Below, in pieces: positions 4,913 to 55,025 of a stretch of 64,000 nt of DNA. The translations under genes were made by a program, and so were the position numbers. Each line of letters opens with the position of its first letter. The stretch's first letter is position 1. Under the pieces are notes generated by a model. That model worked only from the letters and a program-made list of their open reading frames with translations. It was not told the DNA's origin and searched no databases. Source of the stretch: an uncultured bacterium (GTDB taxonomy: Bacteria; Patescibacteriota; Minisyncoccia; UBA6257; 2-01-FULL-56-20); NCBI GenBank assembly GCA_963718575.1, contig OY970358.1, positions 194,172 through 258,171 of the forward strand, written 5' to 3'.

Positions 4913-5476
4913 TTATTTGGAAGATGAAATTTCGATCAATCCGCCGCGGCCGCCCGGAACGGCGCCCTTAAGGAAAAGCAAATTGTTTTCTTTATCGATT
5001 GCGGCAACGACGAGGTTCTTGATCGTGACGCGGTCAACACCCATGTGTCCTGCCATGCGGCGGCCCGGGACGACGCGCTGGAAAGCGGTCGAGCCGATGG
5101 AGCCCGGCGCGCGGTGACGATTCTTCTGACCGTGGGTTTTAGGACCGCCGCGGAAGTTGTAGCGCTTGACGACGCCCTGGAAACCGCGACCCTTCGTGAT
5201 GCCGCTCACGCGCACCTTGTCGCCTTCTACAAACGAATCAACGCCGACCAAATCATCAATTTTTAACGTAGAAATATCCACCTTCTGATTGGGGCGGTTC
5301 TTGAACTCGCGCTTCTTCTTGCCCAACGTCAATTGGACGGCCTCATAGCCGTCGCGCTCTGCGGTGCGCACGATGGAAACCTTGTTCGGTTCCGCCTGGA
5401 CGACCGTAACCGGAAAGACTTTTCCGTCCTTCCAAATCTGCGTCATTTTAAGTTTTTTGCCTAAGATATATGACAT
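4913..5476 (-). CDS. rplC: 50S ribosomal protein L3
   Basis: MSYILGKKLKMTQIWKDGKVFPVTVV...GITKGRGFQGVVKRYNFRGGPKTHGQKNRHRAPGSIG is L3. The 24-codon upstream extension in the ORF track is likely non-coding. Start chosen at the conserved MxxILGKK. Confidence 0.9.
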   Translation of the reverse strand: MSYILGKKLKMTQIWKDGKVFPVTVVQAEPNKVSIVRTAERDGYEAVQLTLGKKKREFKNRPNQKVDISTLKIDDLVGVDSFVEGDKVRVSGITKGRGFQGVVKRYNFRGGPKTHGQKNRHRAPGSIGSTAFQRVVPGRRMAGHMGVDRVTIKNLVVAAIDKENNLLFLKGAVPGGRGGLIEISSSK

Positions 5477-5488
5477 TTTCTTGATCGT

Positions 5489-5564
5489 TTCCGAGTGAAG
5501 TACTATCTCCCTCACTACCGCGTAGGAACGCTCAAACGTTCGGGACACAGTACTTCACTCGGAA
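5489..5564 (-). promoter_or_regulatory. 16-bp perfect inverted repeat (ttccgagtgaagtact / agtacttcactcggaa, 44-nt loop) immediately upstream of rplC; candidate leader hairpin/attenuator
   Basis: Seen directly in sequence. Position is just 5' of the rplC start codon, at the junction between the inserted block and the rest of the S10 cluster. Confidence 0.4.
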
Positions 5565-5583
5565 AATCCAGTAATAAATTATT

Positions 5584-5611
5584 AAACTCCGGTTCTGACA
5601 CCGGAGTTTTT
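5584..5611. terminator. GC hairpin (ctccggt-tctgaca-ccggag) followed by TTTTT; intrinsic-terminator-like
   Basis: Stem-loop plus T-run in sequence. Lies between the NUDIX gene and rplC. Confidence 0.4.
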
Positions 5612-5804
5612 AGCACAATCAACCGACCTACCCCGCTTTTAGACGGGATCCAGAGAAAACGGCGACCGTTTTTCTGCGCCTGGCCCGCGAACACGTTTCG
5701 CGTTCATAGCCGAGGCATAAGGGGTAAATATTTGCATAAAAACTACCGAGCAAACCTTGATGACGATTATAGCAAAGCGGGCGGTAAAGTCAAATGGGGT
5801 CTCT

Positions 5805-5922
5805 GCCTCCTGGCTTCGCATACCCTTTTGAGGGACGGGTTCCGCGCTGCTGCGCGGCCCCTTACGCTCGCCGCCTTCGCGGCTCCGCGATACCCTCAAA
5901 AGGGTATGCGAAGCCAGGAGGC
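5805..5922. repeat. Structured repeat element, copy A: 30-bp perfect inverted-repeat arms around a 58-nt core
   Basis: Arms gcctcctggcttcgcatacccttttgaggg and its exact reverse complement. The core shares ~80% identity with the element at 51345..51459 (gttccg...ctgctg...cggcc...cctta.gctc...gccttcgcg..tccg) although the arm sequences differ. Confidence 0.6.
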
Positions 5923-5959
5923 CAAAATCACCGTTTGGCGTATGCGCCCGCTATGAAAA

Positions 5960-6409
5960 TTATTTTAGATGCTTTTCGAAATAAGCTCTATATCTTTCAA
6001 AAGTATAAGCAAAACCGCCATGAAGTGGCTGTGGTAATTTGTCTATTTTATACCATCCTAGCTCCTCGATTTTTTCCGGTTCTCCGTTCTTAACCTCCGC
6101 AGGGTCAACAAGTATGAAAAATGGCACGGCGATCCAATGGGTTTTGACGCCGTCTTGATCGCGAAAAATATCATGCGCTGGCAATTGTTCCTGAACAACT
6201 CCCTTACAGCCGTACTCCTCCATAACTTCTTTTAAAACGTTTTCCTCCAATGAAATTTCAAATTCCATTTTCCCCGAACCGGTATCCCATCGGCCATGTT
6301 CATCTCTGCACTTTATTGTTCGTTTGTGCATCAGAAGATTCCCCTTTCCGTCATGACAATAAAACGGGGTGGTAACTCCAATAAAATCAAAGCCGATTTT
6401 CATATGCAT
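5960..6409 (-). CDS. NUDIX hydrolase
   Basis: Nudix box GSGKMEFEISLEENVLKEVMEEYGCKG (Gx5Ex7REVxEExG). 149 aa. Local GC is clearly lower than in the ribosomal genes. Confidence 0.7.
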   Translation of the reverse strand: MHMKIGFDFIGVTTPFYCHDGKGNLLMHKRTIKCRDEHGRWDTGSGKMEFEISLEENVLKEVMEEYGCKGVVQEQLPAHDIFRDQDGVKTHWIAVPFFILVDPAEVKNGEPEKIEELGWYKIDKLPQPLHGGFAYTFERYRAYFEKHLK

Positions 6410-6462
6410 AGTTTATGATGGGAATTATGTACAGGCTAATAGAATTTGTGCCAATCTTGCAG

Positions 6463-7095
6463 TTAAAACAGATATCGCCCCGAAGCCCAGCCTCGCTTTC
6501 CGGGCGGCGCAATGGCTTTTACTGCGTTGCCATCTATATATAACTCATCCTGGACAATTTCGCCTTTTCGAATAGCTTCTTCCCATGCCTGAGTTGGTTC
6601 TTTACCCCACGGAAGCCATGGCGTCAGGTCGTCCATAATAATAACGGTGTCAGGGCGAGCAAGCGCTTTCATATTATCAATATCTGCTTTTACGATTTCG
6701 TACTCGTGACCGCCATCAATAAAGATGAGGTCGAATTTTTGATCGGGATTCTGCGCTGAAAATTCTGGCACTGTTTTTGTCGAATCGCCAAGAATGAGTT
6801 TGTGCCTTCCGGGAAATTTGCGATTAATAATTTGCTTTGCGCCGGAAACGAATGAATGCGTTCCGATATCGAATGAAACTACCGCTATATCCTTCCGCGC
6901 TTTAAGAAATGCATACGAAGAAAATCCAAGGTGAAAACCAATTTCTGCGATGCTTTTTACATTCGGCCGCTTTGCTGTTTTATAAAGATATTGTAATTCC
7001 TGCGGAGAAGAAGCTCCTTCATTGATTTTATAACCACGCAATCGAAGCTCCCCATAGATCAGTCCTTGCGCGATATTAAATCGAAACGAGTTCAT
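6463..7095 (-). CDS. Class I SAM-dependent methyltransferase (Methyltransf_24/TylF-CmcI-like)
   Basis: Glycine-rich SAM motif IAEIGFHLGFSS and DLIFIDGGHEYE, typical of the O-methyltransferase/CmcI family. AT-richer than flanking sequence. Confidence 0.6.
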   Translation of the reverse strand: MNSFRFNIAQGLIYGELRLRGYKINEGASSPQELQYLYKTAKRPNVKSIAEIGFHLGFSSYAFLKARKDIAVVSFDIGTHSFVSGAKQIINRKFPGRHKLILGDSTKTVPEFSAQNPDQKFDLIFIDGGHEYEIVKADIDNMKALARPDTVIIMDDLTPWLPWGKEPTQAWEEAIRKGEIVQDELYIDGNAVKAIAPPGKRGWASGRYLF

Positions 7096-7103
7096 TTATC
7101 GGA

Positions 7104-7661
7104 TTATTCGAGTATTATTTTAAGTAATTCCGGAAATTCCTCCGTTCGCACTTCGTCGTCTCCGGCATAGTGTCCCCTTCCTTTCAATTCGATGATTGTC
7201 CCGCCCAGGGCATCGTGAAACATTTTCAAACTTTTTTTGCCATTCTCCGCTTCGTTGTCGGCGGTGAACATGACGATGTTATTTACCCGCGATTTAATCG
7301 TTTCATCTATCGCATAATTATAAAACTTTATCTTCTCCTTGCTGCTCGTGCCGATCTTCCACGGGGCGACAAGAATAAGCTTATCGATTTTTCTCTTTGA
7401 ATCGCCAAGCCAACGGACGAGAAACGCGCATCCGCAGCTGTGCCCGATCAGCGTCGTCTCCTCGTTTATTTCTTTCTTTTCAAATTCCGATTTCCACTTC
7501 TCATAGCTCGGTACCCAAGACTCTGGCATTTGGGGTGTTGTGGCTGGTATGCCATGGGCAATCAATGTTTTTTGAATCCACGAGATCCAGTGTCTATCGT
7601 CTGGTTTTATATTCTCCTGCGGACCAGAGGAACATCCGTGGATAATGATTGCGTTTTTCAT
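7104..7661 (-). CDS. Alpha/beta-hydrolase, YdeN/RBBP9-like serine hydrolase
   Basis: Start chosen at MKNAIIIHGCSSGPQEN. GxSxG nucleophile motif GHSCG. The ORF-track N-terminal 70 aa is an alternative-frame read-through into the upstream gene. Confidence 0.55.
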   Translation of the reverse strand: MKNAIIIHGCSSGPQENIKPDDRHWISWIQKTLIAHGIPATTPQMPESWVPSYEKWKSEFEKKEINEETTLIGHSCGCAFLVRWLGDSKRKIDKLILVAPWKIGTSSKEKIKFYNYAIDETIKSRVNNIVMFTADNEAENGKKSLKMFHDALGGTIIELKGRGHYAGDDEVRTEEFPELLKIILE

Positions 7662-7668
7662 CTCGCTT

Positions 7669-8208
7669 CTACTTCCGCACCTCGATCCCGCCGAACACGG
7701 CGTCGCCGTGGATGACGAGCGTGACCGCGCCGTCGCCGCCTTGAGCGTTGCTTGTGTCCACGCCACCGAGGAAGACGTTCGCGGTGGAGACCACTTTCCA
7801 ATCCTTGGGGATGGTGATCTGGATGCCGCTGAATATTGATGAGACTTCGAGGTGGATCTCGCTGCCGTCAACCTTGACCTGGGTGAGGTCGATCTCGCCG
7901 CCGGAGAAGACCATGACGATCTTCCCTCCTTTAAAGTGCTCGGTAGCGTAGGAACGGTTCAGCGCGCTGAAAATGGCAACTTCGTCGATGGTGCGTTCGC
8001 CGGATGCGGGCGCTGCTGTGCCGTGGTCGTGACCATGATCGTGGTGATGATCATCCCAGTGCCAGCCGTCAGCCACCGAACGGCGCGCGATCATGCGAAC
8101 GCCGATCGCAATGAGGACGAGAGCAAAGAGAAAGCCGAAAAACGGGATGCCAGTGAGAGCGCTGATACCGATGAGTATTAAGATGATGCCAACGATGAGT
8201 CCTCCCAT
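7669..8208 (-). CDS. Membrane protein with LiaF-like/DUF2154 (toast-rack) C-terminal domain and a His-rich linker
   Basis: N-terminal TM helix. HWDDHHHDHGHDHG His cluster. C-terminal beta-rich repeat ...GEIDLTQVKVDG...VIHGDAVFGGIEV resembles cell-wall stress LiaF C-termini. Confidence 0.4.
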   Translation of the reverse strand: MGGLIVGIILILIGISALTGIPFFGFLFALVLIAIGVRMIARRSVADGWHWDDHHHDHGHDHGTAAPASGERTIDEVAIFSALNRSYATEHFKGGKIVMVFSGGEIDLTQVKVDGSEIHLEVSSIFSGIQITIPKDWKVVSTANVFLGGVDTSNAQGGDGAVTLVIHGDAVFGGIEVRK

Positions 8209-8224
8209 GGTTTTTGTTACGAGT

Positions 8225-8830
8225 TTAATATTGCGTGTGCGTGTTTTGGATCGCGGCCATGACGGTGGGCGAAAGCGAGCTCACGACCGGCGAATTGGTT
8301 TTGACGAGGCCGTAGAGGATGACGGCGACGAGGAACGCGACCGCGAGAAGGAACACGATGAATCGCGCAAACCAGTGGCGGCCGAGCACGATGCTCGCGC
8401 CCCACAAGATGAGCAAGATCGGCCAGAACGGCGCGATCGCCAGCCAGAAACCGTGCGAGACGAAGCCCATCGTATAGAGCAATCCAACGACGCCCACAAA
8501 AAGCACGATCATCCCAAAGAACAGGCCGCCCTCGTGATGATGATCGCGGCGCCAGTCTTCGCGCTGCATCCGGCGCTCGGCGCGCTGTTGATCCCGTTGC
8601 TCGTGATGATGCTGCTTCCACCCATCCTTGCGCGCACGCCAGTCTTCTTTGGTCTCTGATTTGGCATCGGACGCGGTCTTCCTCCAATCCGCGCCGCCAT
8701 GCTCCCCTGACGTATTTACGTCCATGCCAAAAACCTGCACATGTGGGCGCGGGCCACCCTGCCCGACTTCTTGCTTGGCCTCGACTTCACTGGCGTTATT
8801 TTCCTGCTCCTGCTTGTTTTCTTCATCCAT
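8225..8830 (-). CDS. Polytopic membrane protein with acidic/His-rich cytoplasmic N-terminus (hypothetical; PspC/LiaF-TM-like)
   Basis: 201 aa. Charged N-terminal half (HHHEQRDQQRAERRMQREDWRRDHHHEGG) then 4 predicted TM helices. Co-oriented with the LiaF-like gene. Confidence 0.35.
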   Translation of the reverse strand: MDEENKQEQENNASEVEAKQEVGQGGPRPHVQVFGMDVNTSGEHGGADWRKTASDAKSETKEDWRARKDGWKQHHHEQRDQQRAERRMQREDWRRDHHHEGGLFFGMIVLFVGVVGLLYTMGFVSHGFWLAIAPFWPILLILWGASIVLGRHWFARFIVFLLAVAFLVAVILYGLVKTNSPVVSSLSPTVMAAIQNTHTQY

Positions 8831-8851
8831 AAAACCATTATAGCACGAACT

Positions 8852-9232
8852 CTAGACGCGCTCCTCTAGAGTATTCACGCGTTCGTTCATCCCCTCAATT
8901 AATATTTTAAGCGAGCCGTATCCTTCCAACGTAAAATCAAATTTTGAATCTAATTTTTCGAGCAAGAGGCCGGTCTTTTTATTTGATTCTTCGAAACGAT
9001 CTATCCTCTTTTCAAAAAGATTCATCCGTTCATCTAACCTCTCTGCCACTGAATCCATTTTGCCGGCAATAAGAAGCATTCTTCCATCCACTCCGTTCTT
9101 TAAATGGTCAAACTTATCATCAAACGCAATAACAAGCCCGTCCATCTTCTTATCGATGGCCCCCACCTTGCCCTCAAGGGTTTCAACCCTCTTATCCAGA
9201 TTTTTTAAAAGAATATTTTCCTTTTCAAGCAT
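8852..9232 (-). CDS. Small coiled-coil protein, paralog family member 1
   Basis: 126-aa heptad-rich ORF. Promoter/upstream motif is shared with 19197..19481 and 55026..55388. Confidence 0.5.
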   Translation of the reverse strand: MLEKENILLKNLDKRVETLEGKVGAIDKKMDGLVIAFDDKFDHLKNGVDGRMLLIAGKMDSVAERLDERMNLFEKRIDRFEESNKKTGLLLEKLDSKFDFTLEGYGSLKILIEGMNERVNTLEERV

Positions 9233-9238
9233 GCACTT

Positions 9239-9266
9239 ATTTTAGAAGCGCAAGAGAATAAGTCAA
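9239..9266 (-). promoter_or_regulatory. Sigma70-like promoter TTGACT-N16-TAAAAT placing the TSS at or near the ATG (leaderless)
   Basis: RC of 9233..9266 reads TTGACTtattctcttgcgcttcTAAAATaagtgcATG. Nearly identical arrangement upstream of 19197..19481. Confidence 0.5.
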
Positions 9267-9296
9267 AAACTTTTTAAGAAATTTTTAATGTTTAGT

Positions 9297-10304
9297 TTAC
9301 GGCAGCAGCTGCTTTATCTCCTCTGCATTCAGCGTGTATGCCCGCACGAACGAATCGTCAACGTGCGCATAGAGAACGCCGCTCCCGTTTCCTTGCTCCA
9401 CAAACTGGCTGGCAAATGTGATCGTTCGCGCTTCGCTATCCTGGATGAACGGCTCGGGCGAGACCCAATCGATCGTGCCATTCTCGTAGTCGTAAATAAA
9501 CAATCCGACCGAAAAAATACCGTATTTTATTTTGCCATCCACGCGCTGGTTCGCTTCGCGGCCGTTGATAACGCCCAATAGCTTCCCTTGGCCAACATCA
9601 ATAAAATTTTTCGGAAAGAGCGGACCGGGTGATGCGTGCCCGCCGATCCACGAAATATTCTGCTCTGCCGGATGGAACACCGTCTCGCCAAACTTCCATG
9701 CCGCACCCATATCTTCCGTAATGGCGACACGCACCGTGGAATAAGTGAAATCTTCTCCCGTCGCCGACGACTCGATCAAATTATAATGAACGCCATGTTT
9801 ATTCGTCGGCGCAATGGAAACTTCCTTAGCGCCGCCCGTGCCAACATCCATCAGAACCGGCATCGTCATCTCCAACGAATCCAGATCTTTGCCGACGGCA
9901 TGGCCAAGATGGATGAGCATTCCATGCTTTCCAATATTATGAAACGGCATCGTAAAGTAGAGATGCGTCAATCCGACCTTCTCATCAATCCAAATGTCCG
10001 GGTCTTCAAGGCCGAGAAAATCGAGCGTTTCACCCGCTAATTGCGCAACTATCTCTTCCTGATTTTTTATCATTAAGCGCTCCCCGATTGAAAAACGATC
10101 GAGCGAATCTCCGCGAACCTTATGCAACACGCTCCGATCAATATACCCAGACGTCGCCACATCGCCCGAACGATTTGTGATGCACCGAATGACGCCTTCT
10201 TTATATCCCGAACGCGGGTCGAGCGAGATTGCCATCACATGCTCAAACTTTCCATTCGTCTCCACGGCCTTCCCCGGATGCTCAATATATCCTTTCATCC
10301 TCAT
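9297..10304 (-). CDS. Beta-propeller glycosidase-like protein (GH130/DUF377-like?), hypothetical
   Basis: 335 aa with EDPDIW- and DPR-type blade motifs and repeated hydrophobic beta segments. Family assignment is uncertain without an HMM search. Confidence 0.3.
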   Translation of the reverse strand: MRMKGYIEHPGKAVETNGKFEHVMAISLDPRSGYKEGVIRCITNRSGDVATSGYIDRSVLHKVRGDSLDRFSIGERLMIKNQEEIVAQLAGETLDFLGLEDPDIWIDEKVGLTHLYFTMPFHNIGKHGMLIHLGHAVGKDLDSLEMTMPVLMDVGTGGAKEVSIAPTNKHGVHYNLIESSATGEDFTYSTVRVAITEDMGAAWKFGETVFHPAEQNISWIGGHASPGPLFPKNFIDVGQGKLLGVINGREANQRVDGKIKYGIFSVGLFIYDYENGTIDWVSPEPFIQDSEARTITFASQFVEQGNGSGVLYAHVDDSFVRAYTLNAEEIKQLLP

Positions 10305-10323
10305 TTCTTTATTATAATCTCGT

Positions 10324-10365
10324 CTAAAACAAAAAGCCCCGCTTTCGCGGGGCTTTTTGTTTTAG
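10324..10365. terminator. Perfect palindromic intrinsic terminator (ctaaaacaaaaagccccgc-tt-tcgcggggctttttgttttag), bidirectional
   Basis: Stem agccccgc/gcggggct flanked by A-run and T-run. The T-run overlaps the rpsJ stop codon. Confidence 0.7.
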
Positions 10366-10685
10366 ACCATCTTGATCTCAATATCAACGCCGGCGGGAAG
10401 GTTCAAGTTCGAAAGGGATTCAATGATCTTCTGACTGGGGTTTAATATCTCTACAAGGCGCTTATGAATGCGGAGCTCGAACTGTTCGCGGGCATCCTTA
10501 TGGACGAAGGTCGAACGGTTGACAGTGTAGTGCTTCACTTCCGTGGGAAGCGGGATAGGACCCGTCACCTTGGCATCGTTCCGCTCGGCGGCCTCGATGA
10601 TCTGGCGTGCCGAGTTGTCGATCAGTTTATGATCGTACGACTTGATGCGAAGGCGCAACTTTTGTGGAGTATCTGTCTTTGCCAT
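10362..10685 (-). CDS. rpsJ: 30S ribosomal protein S10
   Basis: [48 protein letters not shown]...RIHKRLVEI is S10. Start chosen at the conserved MAK, not the upstream ORF-track ATG. Confidence 0.9.
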
Positions 10686-10699
10686 TTGAGTACCAAGGG

Positions 10700-10727
10700 A
10701 GTATAGCAAATCCGGCAGAAGTGTCAA
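10700..10727 (-). promoter_or_regulatory. rpsJ promoter TTGACA-N16-TATACT with ~7-nt leader
   Basis: RC reads TTGACActtctgccggatttgcTATACTcccttggtactcaaATG. Near-consensus -35 and -10. Confidence 0.55.
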
Positions 10728-10813
10728 CAAGTGCGATAGGTAATAGTGCAAATGACTTTAGATAGTTTTAATGCATGATTCTATACAATGCCTGCGGGGG
10801 TGGCATAGTGCTG

Positions 10814-10958
10814 GGCCCAGGTTGGCACCATGGACCCACGAGGCGCACGTCCTCGCACCCCCGCGTATAGGCACCAAGAGAAATATTAAATAAAGATTAA
10901 AAATATTTTGACAGATCCTTTTGAATTGCTATTATGATCACAGGTGCCAACCTGGGCC
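10814..10958. repeat. 16-bp perfect inverted repeat (ggcccaggttggcacc / ggtgccaacctgggcc) bracketing ~113 nt that contains a TTGACA-N16-TATTAT promoter
   Basis: Seen in sequence. Intergenic between rpsJ and tuf. Confidence 0.4.
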
Positions 10959-11010: not shown

Positions 11011-11337
11011 GCGCGAGGTATCGAACGACATCTAAATATTGGTTACATAAAAAAAGAGCGTCGCACTGATAGAGCCGCATTTACTCGTCTTCGTCTTCCT
11101 CTGCCTCTGGCGTGACTTTGACAATCTTATCGTCCTTCGCGTCAACGATCAGAAAAAATATATGCGTGGCTCCGGTGATGAGTCCGCCAGTTTTTCCCTC
11201 TGGATCAAAAAACTCTCCTCTCCTTGGGACTCCTGGAGGCGTCAGCGTCGTGAAAAAAATGTAATAACATAAGCAAATAAAAACCACCCTTGAAGGGAAT
11301 CGCGGAGCCGCGAAGGCATCTTCATCCCTCGAGCAGT

Positions 11338-11416
11338 AACAAAAACACCCCTTCCTTTTTTGACGGTCACGTTCCTACGTGGCATTTCCGTCAAAAAAGG
11401 AAGGGGTGTTTTTGTT
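11338..11416. repeat. Conserved long hairpin element, copy 1, immediately 3' of tuf
   Basis: Near-perfect 79-nt palindrome aacaaaaacaccccttccttttttgacgg-TCACGTTCCTACGTGGCATTTCC-gtcaaaaaaggaaggggtgtttttgtt. The central 27 nt are identical to copy 2 at 16026..16105, while the outer stems covary. Confidence 0.6.
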
Positions 11417-11421
11417 ACTGC

Positions 11422-12623
11422 TTACTTGATGATCTTCGTCACGACGCCGGCGCCGACCGTCTTGCCGCCCTCGCGGATGGCGAAACGCATCTTGTCTTCC
11501 ATAGCAACCGGGGTGATGAGCTTGACCGTGATCTTGACGGTGTCGCCCGGCATGACCATTTCCATTCCTTCAGGAAGGGTGACCTCACCGGTCACGTCGG
11601 TCGTGCGGATGTAGAACTGCGGCTTATACCCCTTGAAGAACGGAGAGTGACGGCCGCCCTCTTCCTTCGAGAGCACGTAGATCTCACCTTCGAACTCCGC
11701 GTGCGGGGTGACGGTGCCCGGCTTCGCGAGCACCTGTCCGCGCTCCACGTCCTCTTTCTTGAGACCGCGGAGGAGCAAACCGGCGTTGTCGCCTGCCTGA
11801 CCATCATCCAAGCTCTTGTTGAACATTTCGATGCCGGTGACGACGGTCTTCTGGGTCGGCTTCAAACCGACGACCTCGACTTCCTCGTTCACTTTGACGC
11901 GACCGCGCTCGATGCGGCCGGTGACGACCGTGCCGCGGCCTTCGATCGAGAAGATGTCCTCGATAGGCATAAGGAACGGCTTGTCGAGTTCGCGGACCGG
12001 ATCCGGGAAGTAATCGTCCATCGCCTTGATCAAGATCAAGGATCGGCTTCGCATCTGCGGAATCAGCATCGGTCGCGTTCAACGCCTTCAATGCCGAACC
12101 GCGGATCACCGGGGCATGCTCGCCATCGTAGCCGTTCTTGGTGAGCAACTCGCGCACCTCGGACTCTACGAGATCGATCAATTCCGGATCATCTACCATA
12201 TCGCACTTATTAAGGAACACGATGATGTTCGGCACACCGACCTGGTGAGCGAGCAAGATGTGTTCGCGGGTCTGCGGCATCGGGCCGTCAGTCGCGGCAA
12301 CGACGAGCACTGCGCCGTCCATCTGGGCGGCGCCCGTGATCATGTTCTTAATGTAGTCAGCGTGTCCCGGAGCATCAACGTGCGCATAGTGGCGCTTCTC
12401 CGAAGAATATTCGGAGTGATGCAAAGCGATCGTGATGCCACGAGCCTTCTCTTCCGGAGCATTGTCGATCTGATCGACTTTCTCCTCTTTCTTTGCCCAA
12501 CCCTTCAAAAACAAAACGTGCGTGATCGCCGCGGTCGAGCGTCGTCTTGCCATGATCGACGTGGCCAATCGTACCTACGTTGAGGTGCGGCTTGGACCGG
12601 TCGAACTTTTCTTTTTCTGCCAT
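11422..12623 (-). CDS. tuf: Elongation factor Tu, interrupted by two apparent 1-nt indels (~12536 and ~12032)
   Basis: Three overlapping frames together read [29 protein letters not shown] | [36 protein letters not shown]...ADAKPILDL | [25 protein letters not shown]...[14 protein letters not shown]. This gives a full-length EF-Tu. Confidence 0.9.
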
Positions 12624-16025: not shown

Positions 16026-16103
16026 AAAAACAAAACACCCCTCCTCTTTTTAACGGTCACGTTCCTACGTGGCATTTCCGTTAAAAAGAGGAGGGGTGTT
16101 TTG

Positions 16104-16105
<2 letters not shown>
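16026..16105. repeat. Conserved long hairpin element, copy 2, immediately 3' of fusA (overlaps the stop codon)
   Basis: aaaaacaaaacacccctcctctttttaacgg-TCACGTTCCTACGTGGCATTTCC-gttaaaaagaggaggggtgttttgtt. The central 27 nt are identical to copy 1, with compensatory changes in the stem. Confidence 0.6.
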
Positions 16106-25910: not shown

Positions 25911-25961
25911 CCGATAGAAAACAGTAGGGCTACATTTTAATTCAGTAAGTAAACTTCTCTA

Positions 25962-25990
25962 TTCTAAAATCACAATTTGTGATTTTAGAA
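25962..25990. repeat. 29-nt perfect palindrome ttctaaaatcacaa-t-ttgtgattttagaa between two tRNA genes
   Basis: Seen in sequence. AT-rich spacer. Operator-like dyad. Confidence 0.4.
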
Positions 25991-26129
25991 TGCGGGAAAA
26001 CTCGATATTATTCGAGAAGCGGCGCAAGCGCGGCAAACCCCCTTACCCTTACACGCTGGCGATGACGAAATATATCTCACGCAACTCATTGCATTTTCCG
26101 CCTATCCTTAATAGAATAACTTTGATATT

Positions 26130-46448: not shown

Positions 46449-46510
46449 AAAGCCCGCTTGTTTTAAGACCGTTGCGTCTTCGCACTAGGTCGCAAAACAA
46501 GCGGGCTTTT
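46449..46510 (-). terminator. Long-stem intrinsic terminator (gcccgcttgtttt...aaaacaagcgggc)
   Basis: Seen in sequence. 3' of the 46515..46856 gene. Confidence 0.6.
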
Positions 46511-46514
46511 ATAT

Positions 46515-46856
46515 TTACTGCTGTGCCGGGATCATCGGACCGCCGGGAGTGCTCGTGGCACCGCCCGTCGTCTCGCCCGACGGCATATAACCGCCGCCGT
46601 ATCCTCCATCACTCTGCATCATCGAATGTTCGTGGTAGTAGGATCCGCCAAACGCGGCGTGGAGCTCATCGCGAAACTCTCCCGCCTTTACGCCCAGCGC
46701 AAAAACGAAAGCGAGGATCACGATGCCCACGATCCACCAGATCAGGCGATGGCCATGCCCGCATCCGCATCCACACCCGCAGGTGCATCCAGCACCGCAC
46801 GCGCACGTCGTTTTGCCCGTCGATACTATCTTCTGTCCGTTCTTCATTTCGTCCAT
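46515..46856 (-). CDS. Cys/Gly-rich membrane protein (possible metal-binding), hypothetical
   Basis: CACGAGCTCGCGCGCGHGH cluster. One TM helix. Gly/Tyr-rich tail. Confidence 0.4.
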   Translation of the reverse strand: MDEMKNGQKIVSTGKTTCACGAGCTCGCGCGCGHGHRLIWWIVGIVILAFVFALGVKAGEFRDELHAAFGGSYYHEHSMMQSDGGYGGGYMPSGETTGGATSTPGGPMIPAQQ

Positions 46857-50818: not shown

Positions 50819-51343
50819 ATGATCATAAACAGCGAGGACGAGAAATTTTTTGAGGATCTTGCCGGCGCGAAGACGGAAGCCGACGGCGAGTACGACGTGG
50901 AACTCGTGAAGGCGTCGAGCGGCGCAGTTGCTTCGCGCCCGGCATCCGCCGCGCCGAAGATGATCCGCACCGCAAAAGAAGACAAAGAGGATCTCTGGGC
51001 CGACGGCGAACCGGAAGGCCAGCTGACGGTGGACGTCTATCAGACGGCGAACGACATCGTCGTGGAATCCGCGATTGCGGGCGTGGCGCCGGACGACATC
51101 GATGTGAACGTCACCACCGACTCGATCTCCATCCGCGGCTCGCGCAAGCGCGAGAAGACCGTGCGCGACGATGATTACCTCTATCAGGAATGCTACTGGG
51201 GCAAATTCGGCCGCTCCATCATATTGCCGCAGGAAGTTGACCCGGAAGGCGCGGTGGTCAAGTTCAAGAACGGGATTCTGACGGTGACCCTGCCAAAAGC
51301 GAATAAGAAGAAGATCCACAAGTTGAAGATTCGGGTGGACTAA
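50819..51343 (+). CDS. Hsp20/alpha-crystallin family small heat-shock protein
   Basis: ...GQLTVDVYQTANDIVVESAIAGVAPDDIDVNVT...GILTVTLPK alpha-crystallin domain. Confidence 0.8.
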   Translation: MIINSEDEKFFEDLAGAKTEADGEYDVELVKASSGAVASRPASAAPKMIRTAKEDKEDLWADGEPEGQLTVDVYQTANDIVVESAIAGVAPDDIDVNVTTDSISIRGSRKREKTVRDDDYLYQECYWGKFGRSIILPQEVDPEGAVVKFKNGILTVTLPKANKKKIHKLKIRVD

Positions 51344-51344
51344 G

Positions 51345-51459
51345 GGCCTAAGTGACACACCTTTCGAAAGGACGGCGTTCCGATCTGCTGACCGGCCGCC
51401 TTAGCTCTCAGCGCCTTCGCGCTTCCGACACACCTTCCAAAAGGTGTGTCACTTAGGCC
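51345..51459. repeat. Structured repeat element, copy B (2 nt after the hsp20 stop)
   Basis: 20-27-bp inverted arms ggcctaagtgacacaccttt... around a core ~80% identical to the core of 5805..5922. Confidence 0.6.
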
Positions 51460-51539
51460 AATAATAAACCCCGATATATCAACTTGCGTAAATTATTCTT
51501 TTCCGCTATAATCTTTCAGTAATTTAACCAATCAAAGAC

Positions 51540-54698: not shown

Positions 54699-54711
54699 AT
54701 TATTTCTCCGG

Positions 54712-54788
54712 GATTTAAAAAGGGCGCCTGCTTTTGTGACCGTTGTTTCTTAACACTAAGTCTCAAAAGCAGATGCCCTTTTTAAATC
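54712..54788. terminator. 25-bp near-perfect inverted repeat (gatttaaaaagggcgcctgcttttg / caaaagcagatgccctttttaaatc), bidirectional terminator-like
   Basis: Seen in sequence downstream of the VIT gene. Confidence 0.5.
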
Positions 54789-55025
54789 CCGTCAGATTTC
54801 TGGCGCAACAGCCAGGTGGGTGGACTCAACTGCGGTCCACGGACGGCAGAGATTTGTCCTCCCCTTTAAAATTGTTTGATCCGAAATCTGCGCGGGATCT
54901 GACTCTATTATACCACCGCTCCGGCAAAAGATATCAATGTGCATAGCGCTTCACTACCACAAAGCCCATTAAATCTATATTAAAAGAGTTTTGACTTCCC
55001 CATTGTAAGGATTATCCTTATTGGC

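Follow-up and report, generated by a model that had tools for sequence, protein, structure and literature searches.

The window analysed here, a stretch of 64,000 nucleotides from an uncultured member of the Patescibacteriota, contains two short intergenic elements in which a similar GC-rich core is enclosed by different, self-complementary arms. What kind of entity combines a conserved centre with variable, mutually pairing ends? An earlier note on this DNA had offered three options, namely a non-coding RNA, a REP-like protein-binding cruciform or a small non-autonomous mobile element. The gains, losses and relics that are found at orthologous sites favour a REP-like or small non-autonomous mobile element as the best of the three, and the element behaves as a DNA repeat that is gained and lost, not as an RNA gene. 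In the reading we prefer, to which we assign a little more than an even chance, it is a REP- or MITE-like dispersed DNA module residing in hairpin tips, with arms that are made and kept perfect by replication template switching.

The first element, copy A (5805-5922), has the anatomy that the earlier note gave it: 118 nt long, it consists of two locus-specific arms of 30 bp (left arm 5805-5834, right arm 5893-5922), which are 100% complementary to each other and enclose a core of 58 nt (5835-5892). According to fold prediction and covariation, the core forms a three-way junction comprising hairpin 1 (5842-5857; CCGCGC TGCT GCGCGG, enclosed by GGG/CCC) and hairpin 2 (5870-5883; GCCGC CTTC GCGGC, enclosed by CGC/GCG). 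On either strand the element is predicted to fold into a single long stem capped by these two small hairpins, with energies of -94.5 kcal/mol (plus strand) and -100.4 kcal/mol (minus strand) and a z-score of about -11, matched by none of 200 shuffled sequences. The plus strand reads the core in the direction termed “forward” (GTTCC...CTGCTG...GCCTTCGC), and therefore the surrounding minus-strand genes would transcribe the reverse core. Under the covariance model R1 the element scores 98.4 bits, and the retrieved contig L066 is identical to it, flanks included.

Copy B (51345-51459; 96.8 bits under R1) begins 1 nt past the hsp20 stop codon (51341-51343) and ends 24 nt ahead of the -35 box of the rpmB promoter (TTGCGT at 51484-51489, TATAAT at 51507-51512). 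Its arms (51345-51371 and 51433-51459) are unrelated to those of copy A, as had been claimed, and form 27 pairs; of these the outer 20 are perfect, whereas two mismatches (C.A and A.C, plus strand) interrupt the inner part close to the core, which makes the earlier description “perfectly self-complementary” slightly overstated. The core, delimited by fold and alignment (51372-51432), again contains hairpin 1 (51380-51395; CCGATC TGCT GACCGG, with one A.C mismatch) and hairpin 2 (51410-51423; AGCGC CTTC GCGCT). The cores of both copies are identical at 46 of 61 aligned positions, or 75% instead of the roughly 80% first estimated. A 21-nt core pattern common to both (GTTCCGNNCTGCTGNNCGGCC) occurs exactly twice in the window, where 0.16 occurrences are expected. 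On the minus strand the two arm mismatches of copy B are G-U pairs, and a minus-strand RNA was considered as an explanation; it was rejected, since the family-wide mismatch bias described below ignores the mRNA strand. The 3' end of hsp20 and the region of the rpmB promoter are 71% complementary, probably by chance in low-complexity sequence, because relatives that lack the element also retain this promoter.

Copy A lies 37 nt past the stop codon of the NUDIX gene (5960) and upstream of the strong promoter of the rplC operon, a near-consensus sigma-70-type sequence with a TG extension on the minus strand (5766-5793; TTGACT-16-TGnTATAAT, 11 of 12 matches). The promoter begins 11 nt outside the left arm and is context, not part of the repeat; its region is conserved in the related contig L056. 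A weak outer repeat (5773-5797 with 5931-5955, 72%) spans its -35 box and spacer. The gene directly upstream of this promoter differs in relatives (L056 and apparently L103). In the window, rpsJ (10362-10751) and rplC (4913-5548), both on the minus strand, are separated by six unrelated genes (window 5960-10751), which encode a NUDIX protein, a methyltransferase, a serine hydrolase, a LiaF-TM membrane protein and two unknown products.

Copy A thus sits where the earlier note had placed it, at the rplC-proximal edge of a real gap between rpsJ and rplC. This position, and a 19-nt inverted match to a third copy near the other side of the block, would suit a one-off insertion scar or a chance palindrome, a reading to which we give next to no credence. 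It is refuted by the size of the family, with dozens of copies at unrelated loci. Furthermore, the place upstream of the rplC promoter is occupied beside different genes in L056 and, to judge from short flank motifs only, apparently in L103; the site between the NUDIX stop codon and the rplC promoter, like that of the L056 orthologue, is the normal position of the family and not the scar that had been suspected. The third copy, C (~11283-11335, minus strand), is a decayed relic containing an exact 19-mer (11299-11317), in which hairpin 1 is gone but hairpin 2 and the right end remain. Its orthologue in another contig is a second, degenerate element (L100:1117-1218) located downstream of tuf, again at odds with a scar. 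An inversion between copies A and C was also rejected, as the genes within the block have the same direction as those outside it. The contigs L030, L062 and L130 have a similar promoter and were considered as further orthologues of copy A; the neighbour in L062 is rpsM, so that L062 at least represents another site.

A full-sensitivity covariance-model search revealed no further full copies beyond A and B in the 64-kb window. Outside the window, copies were gathered with a pattern derived from A and B, and L-numbers denote the retrieved loci or contigs that carry pattern matches or are syntenic to the window; genes in these loci were called by a longest-ORF heuristic. A scan of metagenomes yielded at least 118 stretches, with about 80 genuine ones among the matches listed; after removal of duplicates these listed matches comprise 58 distinct full elements, a count inflated by orthologous copies, which are not independent observations. 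Among GTDB species representatives, which do not include the genome of the window, the pattern gave 18 matches, one of them genuine (L018, a 726-kb contig of an uncultured bacterium). In IMG/VR viral contigs, scanned with two patterns, no genuine copy was found. Model R1 detected 11 additional copies unseen by the pattern in the same loci, several of which harbour two, and L121 contains three copies within 11 kb. Six syntenic 20-kb loci chosen via hsp20 homologues, and not by the element, contained two copies in 123 kb, which implies a few tens of copies per megabase.

The earlier note had proposed a search for further copies and for conservation of the core in relatives. The roughly 80 genuine stretches listed and L018 provide both, and copy C, the at least 118 metagenome stretches and the GTDB genome together establish a genuine repeat family with a conserved structured core. 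To go by the names given by the sources, not by phylogeny, it is a dispersed non-coding DNA repeat of Paceibacteria-type, small-genome CPR bacteria. The contigs L065, L091 and L033 resemble assembly chimeras joined at the core, and the covariance model and sequence markers for this lineage-specific repeat are useful for binning and for the detection of chimeric assemblies. A second, longer repeat family (GGGAATCGGTCAC..GTTCC...CTGCTG...GCCTTCGC...TTTCGATTCCC) was observed in L044, L073, L096 and L108; it has loop motifs in common with the core of the A/B family and scores 31-56 bits under R1.

The conserved unit of the A/B family is a GC-rich, self-folding module of about 60-75 nt, a three-way junction whose two hairpins (TGCT and CTTC loops) are closed by a short stem of the GAAAGG/CCTTTC type. 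The forward-strand consensus of 63 aligned copies reads CTTTTGAAAGG AC GGCG TT CCGGTC TGCT GACCGG C CGCC TTGG CTC TC GCCGC CTTC GCGGC TCC GAG ACA CCTTTCAAAAG. Pairing in the core helices of this alignment reaches 97.6%, 95.2% and 99.0%, and in 11 of 18 core pairs both partners have changed; the covariation of the core as a whole amounts to 0.525, versus 0.165 in shuffled alignments and at most 0.21 with the 3' partners slid. Wobbles make up 8 of 1132 cells and are symmetric (4 G.T and 4 A.C). There are 15 variants of the hairpin-1 stem and 9 of the hairpin-2 stem, and the two commonest of each occur in all four combinations, which identifies the copies as mosaics. Part of the core conservation is forced by the search pattern, as the columns GTTCC, CTGCTG and GCCTTCGC are invariant by construction. 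Nevertheless, the TGCT-type and CTTC loops and the hairpin-2 frame CTC..TCCG persist in copies that were found independently of the pattern, with variation around hairpin 1. Loops and junction bases are strongly conserved across species, which could point to a specific partner instead of mere foldability. In one element (L141:640-765) an extra 22-nt hairpin is nested within core hairpin 1, and hence a module can itself receive a nested insertion.

A trans-acting small RNA gene or a ribozyme, held together by a variable closing stem, could look like this: the three-way junction is conserved, its helices covary and the fold is very stable. We nevertheless consider such a gene very improbable. 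With Rfam 15 at gathering thresholds no family matched copy A or copy B, and a search with A, B and a consensus-type copy at E-values up to 10 returned chance matches only, far below threshold (score/threshold: SorY 18.9/111, DUF1874 16.5/42, HOTTIP 17.5/50, MIR6425 35/142). By inspection, none of the hammerhead (CUGANGA/GAAA), group II domain V, k-turn or SRP-like motifs fits the core. No promoter or terminator of its own is conserved alongside the element, each genome carries many copies with locus-specific arms, and G-U pairs are nearly absent on both strands. Relative to the abutting gene and its transcription unit the core can face either way, and close relatives differ in presence and absence of the element. 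The ncRNA option of the earlier note was accordingly abandoned; any dedicated RNA function of the core is unlikely because of the mixed orientation, the missing wobbles and the close relatives that lack the element.

The arms tell more about the origin of the hairpins. Among the 58 listed elements their median length is 30 bp (range 14-51), with 39 mismatches in 1711 pairs, and in 33 elements the arms are perfect. The sequences are locus-specific, and the common part is restricted to the innermost stem (6-10 bp, GAAAGG/CCTTTC type) and a T-run/A-run. Beyond about 12 nt from the core no arm consensus exists, save that the 5' arm is C-rich and the 3' arm G-rich, a bias also seen in the plain terminators of these genomes. 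Orthologous copies differ mostly by matched changes in both arms: the ratio of compensated to single changes is 5:0 in L027/L121, 7:0 in L069/L094, 15:0 in L023/L095 and 9:0 in L086/L100. The closest orthologue pairs show a few uncompensated states. Moreover, the arms extend outward into decayed inverted copies of neighbouring functional sequence. At 11-30 nt outside the arm ends, complementarity is 32-34% in register versus 25-26% in a shifted-register control. The right flank of the L100 element includes the last codons of tuf as a diverged copy in inverse orientation, and within the L062 and L130 elements the spacer of the neighbouring promoter recurs inverted; the weak outer repeat around copy A covers promoter sequence in the same manner.

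Template switching during replication is known to create and repair perfect stems (PMC8794818; PMC7202029). At quasipalindromes it converts imperfect into perfect inverted repeats, compensates several bases in one step and leaves reverse-complement copies of flanking sequence (PMC7202029; PMC8794818). The arms of the A/B family behave likewise: perfect pairing on both strands, one-step compensation and inverted flank copies match template switching, and thus the arms do not show selection at the RNA level. The earlier note had taken the covarying arms as the signature of selection on structure. Near-perfect Watson-Crick palindromes of up to 51 bp, concerted change and decayed inverted copies of the flanks are instead the signature of inverted duplication and template switching at the DNA level, and a conserved core plus covarying stems is, as a general caution, no proof of an RNA gene. 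Quasipalindrome template switching is a mutational mechanism and not an element family, however, and leaves the conservation and dispersal of the core unexplained (PMC7202029; PMC8794818).

At orthologous sites the elements show turnover. The spacer between hsp20 and rpmB was compared in seven genomes (the window and L141-L146), in which hsp20 is 74-100% identical. Copy B occupies this spacer in the window, another subtype with entirely different arms in L144 and a short relic (AGGACGG|TCTCAAAAGG) in L145; in L141, L142, L143 and L146 the spacer measures about 25-50 nt and contains no hairpin. At the flavodoxin terminator, the window, L142, L144 and L145 have a plain A-tract/GC-stem/T-tract hairpin; its tip carries a different module (family S4) in L146 and the core of the A/B family in L141, where the element sits in a standard bidirectional terminator between convergent genes. 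Two L141 terminators (L141:6046-6089 and L141:636-764) have the stem AACAAAAGCCCCACC in common, and only one of them contains the core. Upstream of tgt, the hairpin is plain in L141 (centre TTTTAAAA), bears an S2 module in the window and another module in L142 and L143. Between the copy C/L100 relic and the tuf stop codon lies a newer hairpin, with an S1 module in the window and an A/B-family core in L100. Orthologous sites thus record the gain, loss and replacement of modules as well as their relics, and a module can occupy the tip of a pre-existing bidirectional terminator.

Tip modules are not restricted to the A/B family, which is the largest of at least six types in these genomes. Recurring modules of families S1 (CACGTTCCTACGTGGCATTT), S2 (GTTGnTTCTTAnCACTA), S3, S4 and S5 are found in most long intergenic hairpins, and nearly all tip modules are bracketed by TTTT(G/A)A ... 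T(C/T)AAAA. In the window, hairpin I1 at the tuf stop codon (11332-11422; 35-bp perfect arms) contains the 21-nt S1 module TCACGTTCCTACGTGGCATTT, and hairpin I5 at the 3' end of fusA (16029-16105; 28-bp perfect arms) contains the identical module in arms that resemble those of I1, which, like the common stem of the two L141 terminators, is a probable instance of whole-hairpin copying. Hairpin I6, the terminator upstream of tgt (46441-46517), bears a module of family S2 (GTTGCGTCTTCGCACTA). An S2 module is also present in hairpin I4 (54709-54791), and this hairpin is missing from the 18-20-nt spacer between VIT1 and Pterin_4a in L141 and L142.

Two further hairpins near rplC were noticed. A hairpin of 17-24 bp with an S5-like tip module (CGCGTAGGAACGC; window 5488-5565) precedes the likely start codon of rplC by about 10 nt and is absent at the equivalent place in L056. 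The rplC leader of about 215 nt (5549-5765, minus strand), conserved in L056, contains a terminator-like hairpin (5584-5609) followed by a U-rich tail, which may serve as an attenuator of the ribosomal-protein operon.

With respect to genes, the elements typically lie between a stop codon, which they follow closely, and the next promoter; both orientations occur. A gene 3' end is found within 70 nt in 50 of the 58 listed elements (on the forward side only in 24, on the reverse side only in 12 and on both sides in 14), and a cruder analysis of neighbours counted 13 ++, 8 --, 8 convergent and 2 divergent arrangements. Upstream genes, recognised from their C-termini and not by family search, include fusA, tuf, groEL, secY, atpG, rpoD, greA, dnaB, ligA and RNase J. 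Element flanks usually read TTGA ... TCAA, with variation. A T4 run at the outer right end is present in 13 of the 58 listed elements and both tracts in 9, so that about 80% lack a U-tract. Copies A and B have none, and a terminator scan calls neither. On the other hand, copies in L019, L064, L099, L100 and L141:636-764 reside inside standard terminators whose orthologues are plain, and the L141 copy has the U-tract and A-tract of a bidirectional terminator.

These positions are also what one would expect of a cis-acting RNA selected by the host, i.e., a specialised terminator, an RNase III site or a 3'-end stabiliser, in which the core is a recognition or nucleation module and not a passenger. 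The genes upstream are often highly expressed (fusA, tuf, groEL, secY, atpG, rpoD, greA, hsp20), copies occur immediately upstream of strong promoters, and between the convergent genes in L141 pairing on both strands would be useful to a bidirectional terminator. The conserved loops, kept even in copies found without the search pattern, would fit as well. Yet close relatives manage with a plain terminator or no hairpin at the orthologous sites, the two orientations offer an RNA different loop and junction sequences, most copies lack the U-tract, and perfect arms of 40-51 bp far exceed what RNA folding needs. On balance, such a cis-acting RNA appears improbable to us.

The few mismatches in the arms raise a different alternative. 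Among the 58 listed elements they are strand-biased, yielding a wobble on the reverse strand in 23 cases versus 7 on the forward strand (p = 0.005). The favoured strand reads CGCGAAGGCG...CAGCAG, independently of the mRNA strand, which hints at a single-stranded functional or mutational state that the template-switch model does not predict. The element might be a signal at the DNA level. For example, a protein of the nucleoid, of recombination or of priming could bind it as a cruciform or hairpin, or it could be the active strand of a transposon that moves as single-stranded DNA and inserts into hairpin tips. The fixed core strand favoured by the wobbles, the Watson-Crick-only pairing on both strands and, read from the sequence, the purine-rich internal loops of the favoured strand (GGA/GA, G/AA) are compatible with such a signal; insertion into tips fits the targeting of single-stranded loops, and the lineage possesses a Y1 (IS200-type) transposase. 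We rate this alternative as distinctly improbable. Orientation shows no significant bias relative to flank GC skew, a proxy for replication (24 vs 13, p = 0.1), and no partner protein was identified. Target-site duplications, which the earlier note had suggested looking for, are absent as direct repeats at the hairpin boundaries of 57 copies (0 nt in 43, 1 nt in 10 and 2 nt in 4).

The transposase gene in question (L115:10041-10505) adjoins a tRNA gene and encodes an IS200/IS605-type Y1 protein of 154 aa with HVHIQM and GYFVSSVG motifs. It is flanked by hairpins of the CCCCGGGC type, which are unlike the core and argue against a link, and not by an A/B element. A search of about 1 Mb of related DNA with an approximate IS200 TnpA query returned this single homologue. 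Miniature elements derived from IS200/IS605 (PATE) have two similar hairpins near their ends, lack terminal inverted repeats and insert 3' of a fixed target of 4-5 nt; in the A/B family the two core hairpins differ in both stem and loop (TGCT vs CTTC), and the flanks have a usual sequence, given above, from which some copies deviate.

We therefore return to a dispersed DNA module in hairpin tips, for which the following course of events may be envisaged. Replication template switching, as in quasipalindrome correction, would create and lengthen the arms and keep them perfect. Modules, and sometimes whole hairpins, may be copied from hairpin to hairpin by copy-choice or gene conversion, and not by a transposase acting on fixed ends. 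To persist, a module would have to fold compactly on both strands, since the hairpin around it presumably must still close in transcripts arriving from either side. The resulting hairpin would end or insulate transcription units and cap mRNA 3' ends. The element probably acts as a terminator or insulator, a role against which the missing U-tract of copies A and B must be set. The weak point of this explanation is that neither an enzyme nor a donor or target rule has been identified, and that we infer the spread of the module.

How does the family relate to known repeats? REP, BIME and REPIN sequences of Proteobacteria are short extragenic palindromes present in many copies per genome, mostly after genes or between transcription units; hairpins arise from them in both DNA and RNA, and termination as well as stabilisation of mRNA has been attributed to them. 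The A/B family resembles them in size class, copy number, post-gene position and hairpins. In REPs, however, conservation resides in the arms of the palindrome, and the repeats are associated with a RAYT transposase, whereas the A/B family has a conserved centre, locus-specific arms and no link to a RAYT that was found. MITEs of the Correia, ERIC and RUP type are non-coding dispersed repeats of about 100-150 bp, which form long hairpins in transcripts, lie beside promoters or terminators and vary in presence from strain to strain; RNase III cleaves Correia transcripts. The A/B family is likewise short, non-coding, multi-copy (58 listed copies) and present or absent among relatives, as at the hsp20-rpmB and flavodoxin sites. 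In contrast to the family-wide terminal inverted repeats and direct duplications of MITEs (TA in Correia), only the innermost 6-10 bp are common to its members, the outer arms are unique and a direct duplication is lacking.

Bidirectional intrinsic terminators (A-tract, GC stem, T-tract) have the same position and stem make-up, C-rich 5' and G-rich 3', as the A/B family. They end in a small loop, in place of which the A/B family has a structured insert of 60 nt, and its U-tract is mostly absent. A further parallel is offered by integron attC sites, which combine conserved structure with variable sequence, function as a folded single strand and have a variable or branched tip. Their end motifs (RYYYAAC ... 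GTTRRRY) are conserved around a variable centre, and they form cassette arrays beside an integrase gene, whereas in the A/B family the centre is conserved, the outer ends lack a motif and the copies are scattered after housekeeping genes.

The A/B family therefore inverts the usual layout of palindromic repeats, a conserved centre being combined with unique arms. It also provides an unusually clear natural record of palindromes that are born, perfected, extended over functional flanks and left to decay. Intergenic palindromic repeats are well known from Proteobacteria, Neisseria and streptococci; a literature search on CPR bacteria found neither such repeats nor relevant work on terminators. 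The elements are candidate transcription-unit boundaries in genomes whose terminators are poorly understood. As a broader and doubtful, though conceivable, generalisation, CPR genomes might build and renew such boundaries without a transposase: modules copied into hairpin tips by replication copy-choice would seed palindromes, which grow by inverted duplication of neighbouring gene ends and promoters and yield new terminator or insulator hairpins beside decaying older ones. Alternatively, within the same tentative proposal, the wobble bias might mark a single-strand DNA element that targets hairpin tips with an enzyme of its own.

Several other features of the window came to light. The tuf gene (minus strand, 11422-12568) is split in two overlapping frames, one encoding domains 2 and 3 of EF-Tu (11422-12069) and the other the GTP-binding domain (11804-12568); the gene being essential, the split reflects either a frameshift or an error of assembly. 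Upstream of rpsJ (window 10814-10958), a conserved region of about 113 nt with a promoter-like TTGACA...TATTAT sequence is located between 16-nt perfect inverted repeats (GGCCCAGGTTGGCACC). Similar counterparts exist at L095:629-771, L100:3020-3159 and L028:5967-6108, and the region could be a structured leader or a tRNA-linked feature. Finally, the palindrome AAATCACAA-T-TTGTGATTT recurs in the window (25961-25991) and at L100:1061-1089, L019:833-871 and L146:3399-3427, and looks like an operator for a dimeric regulator.
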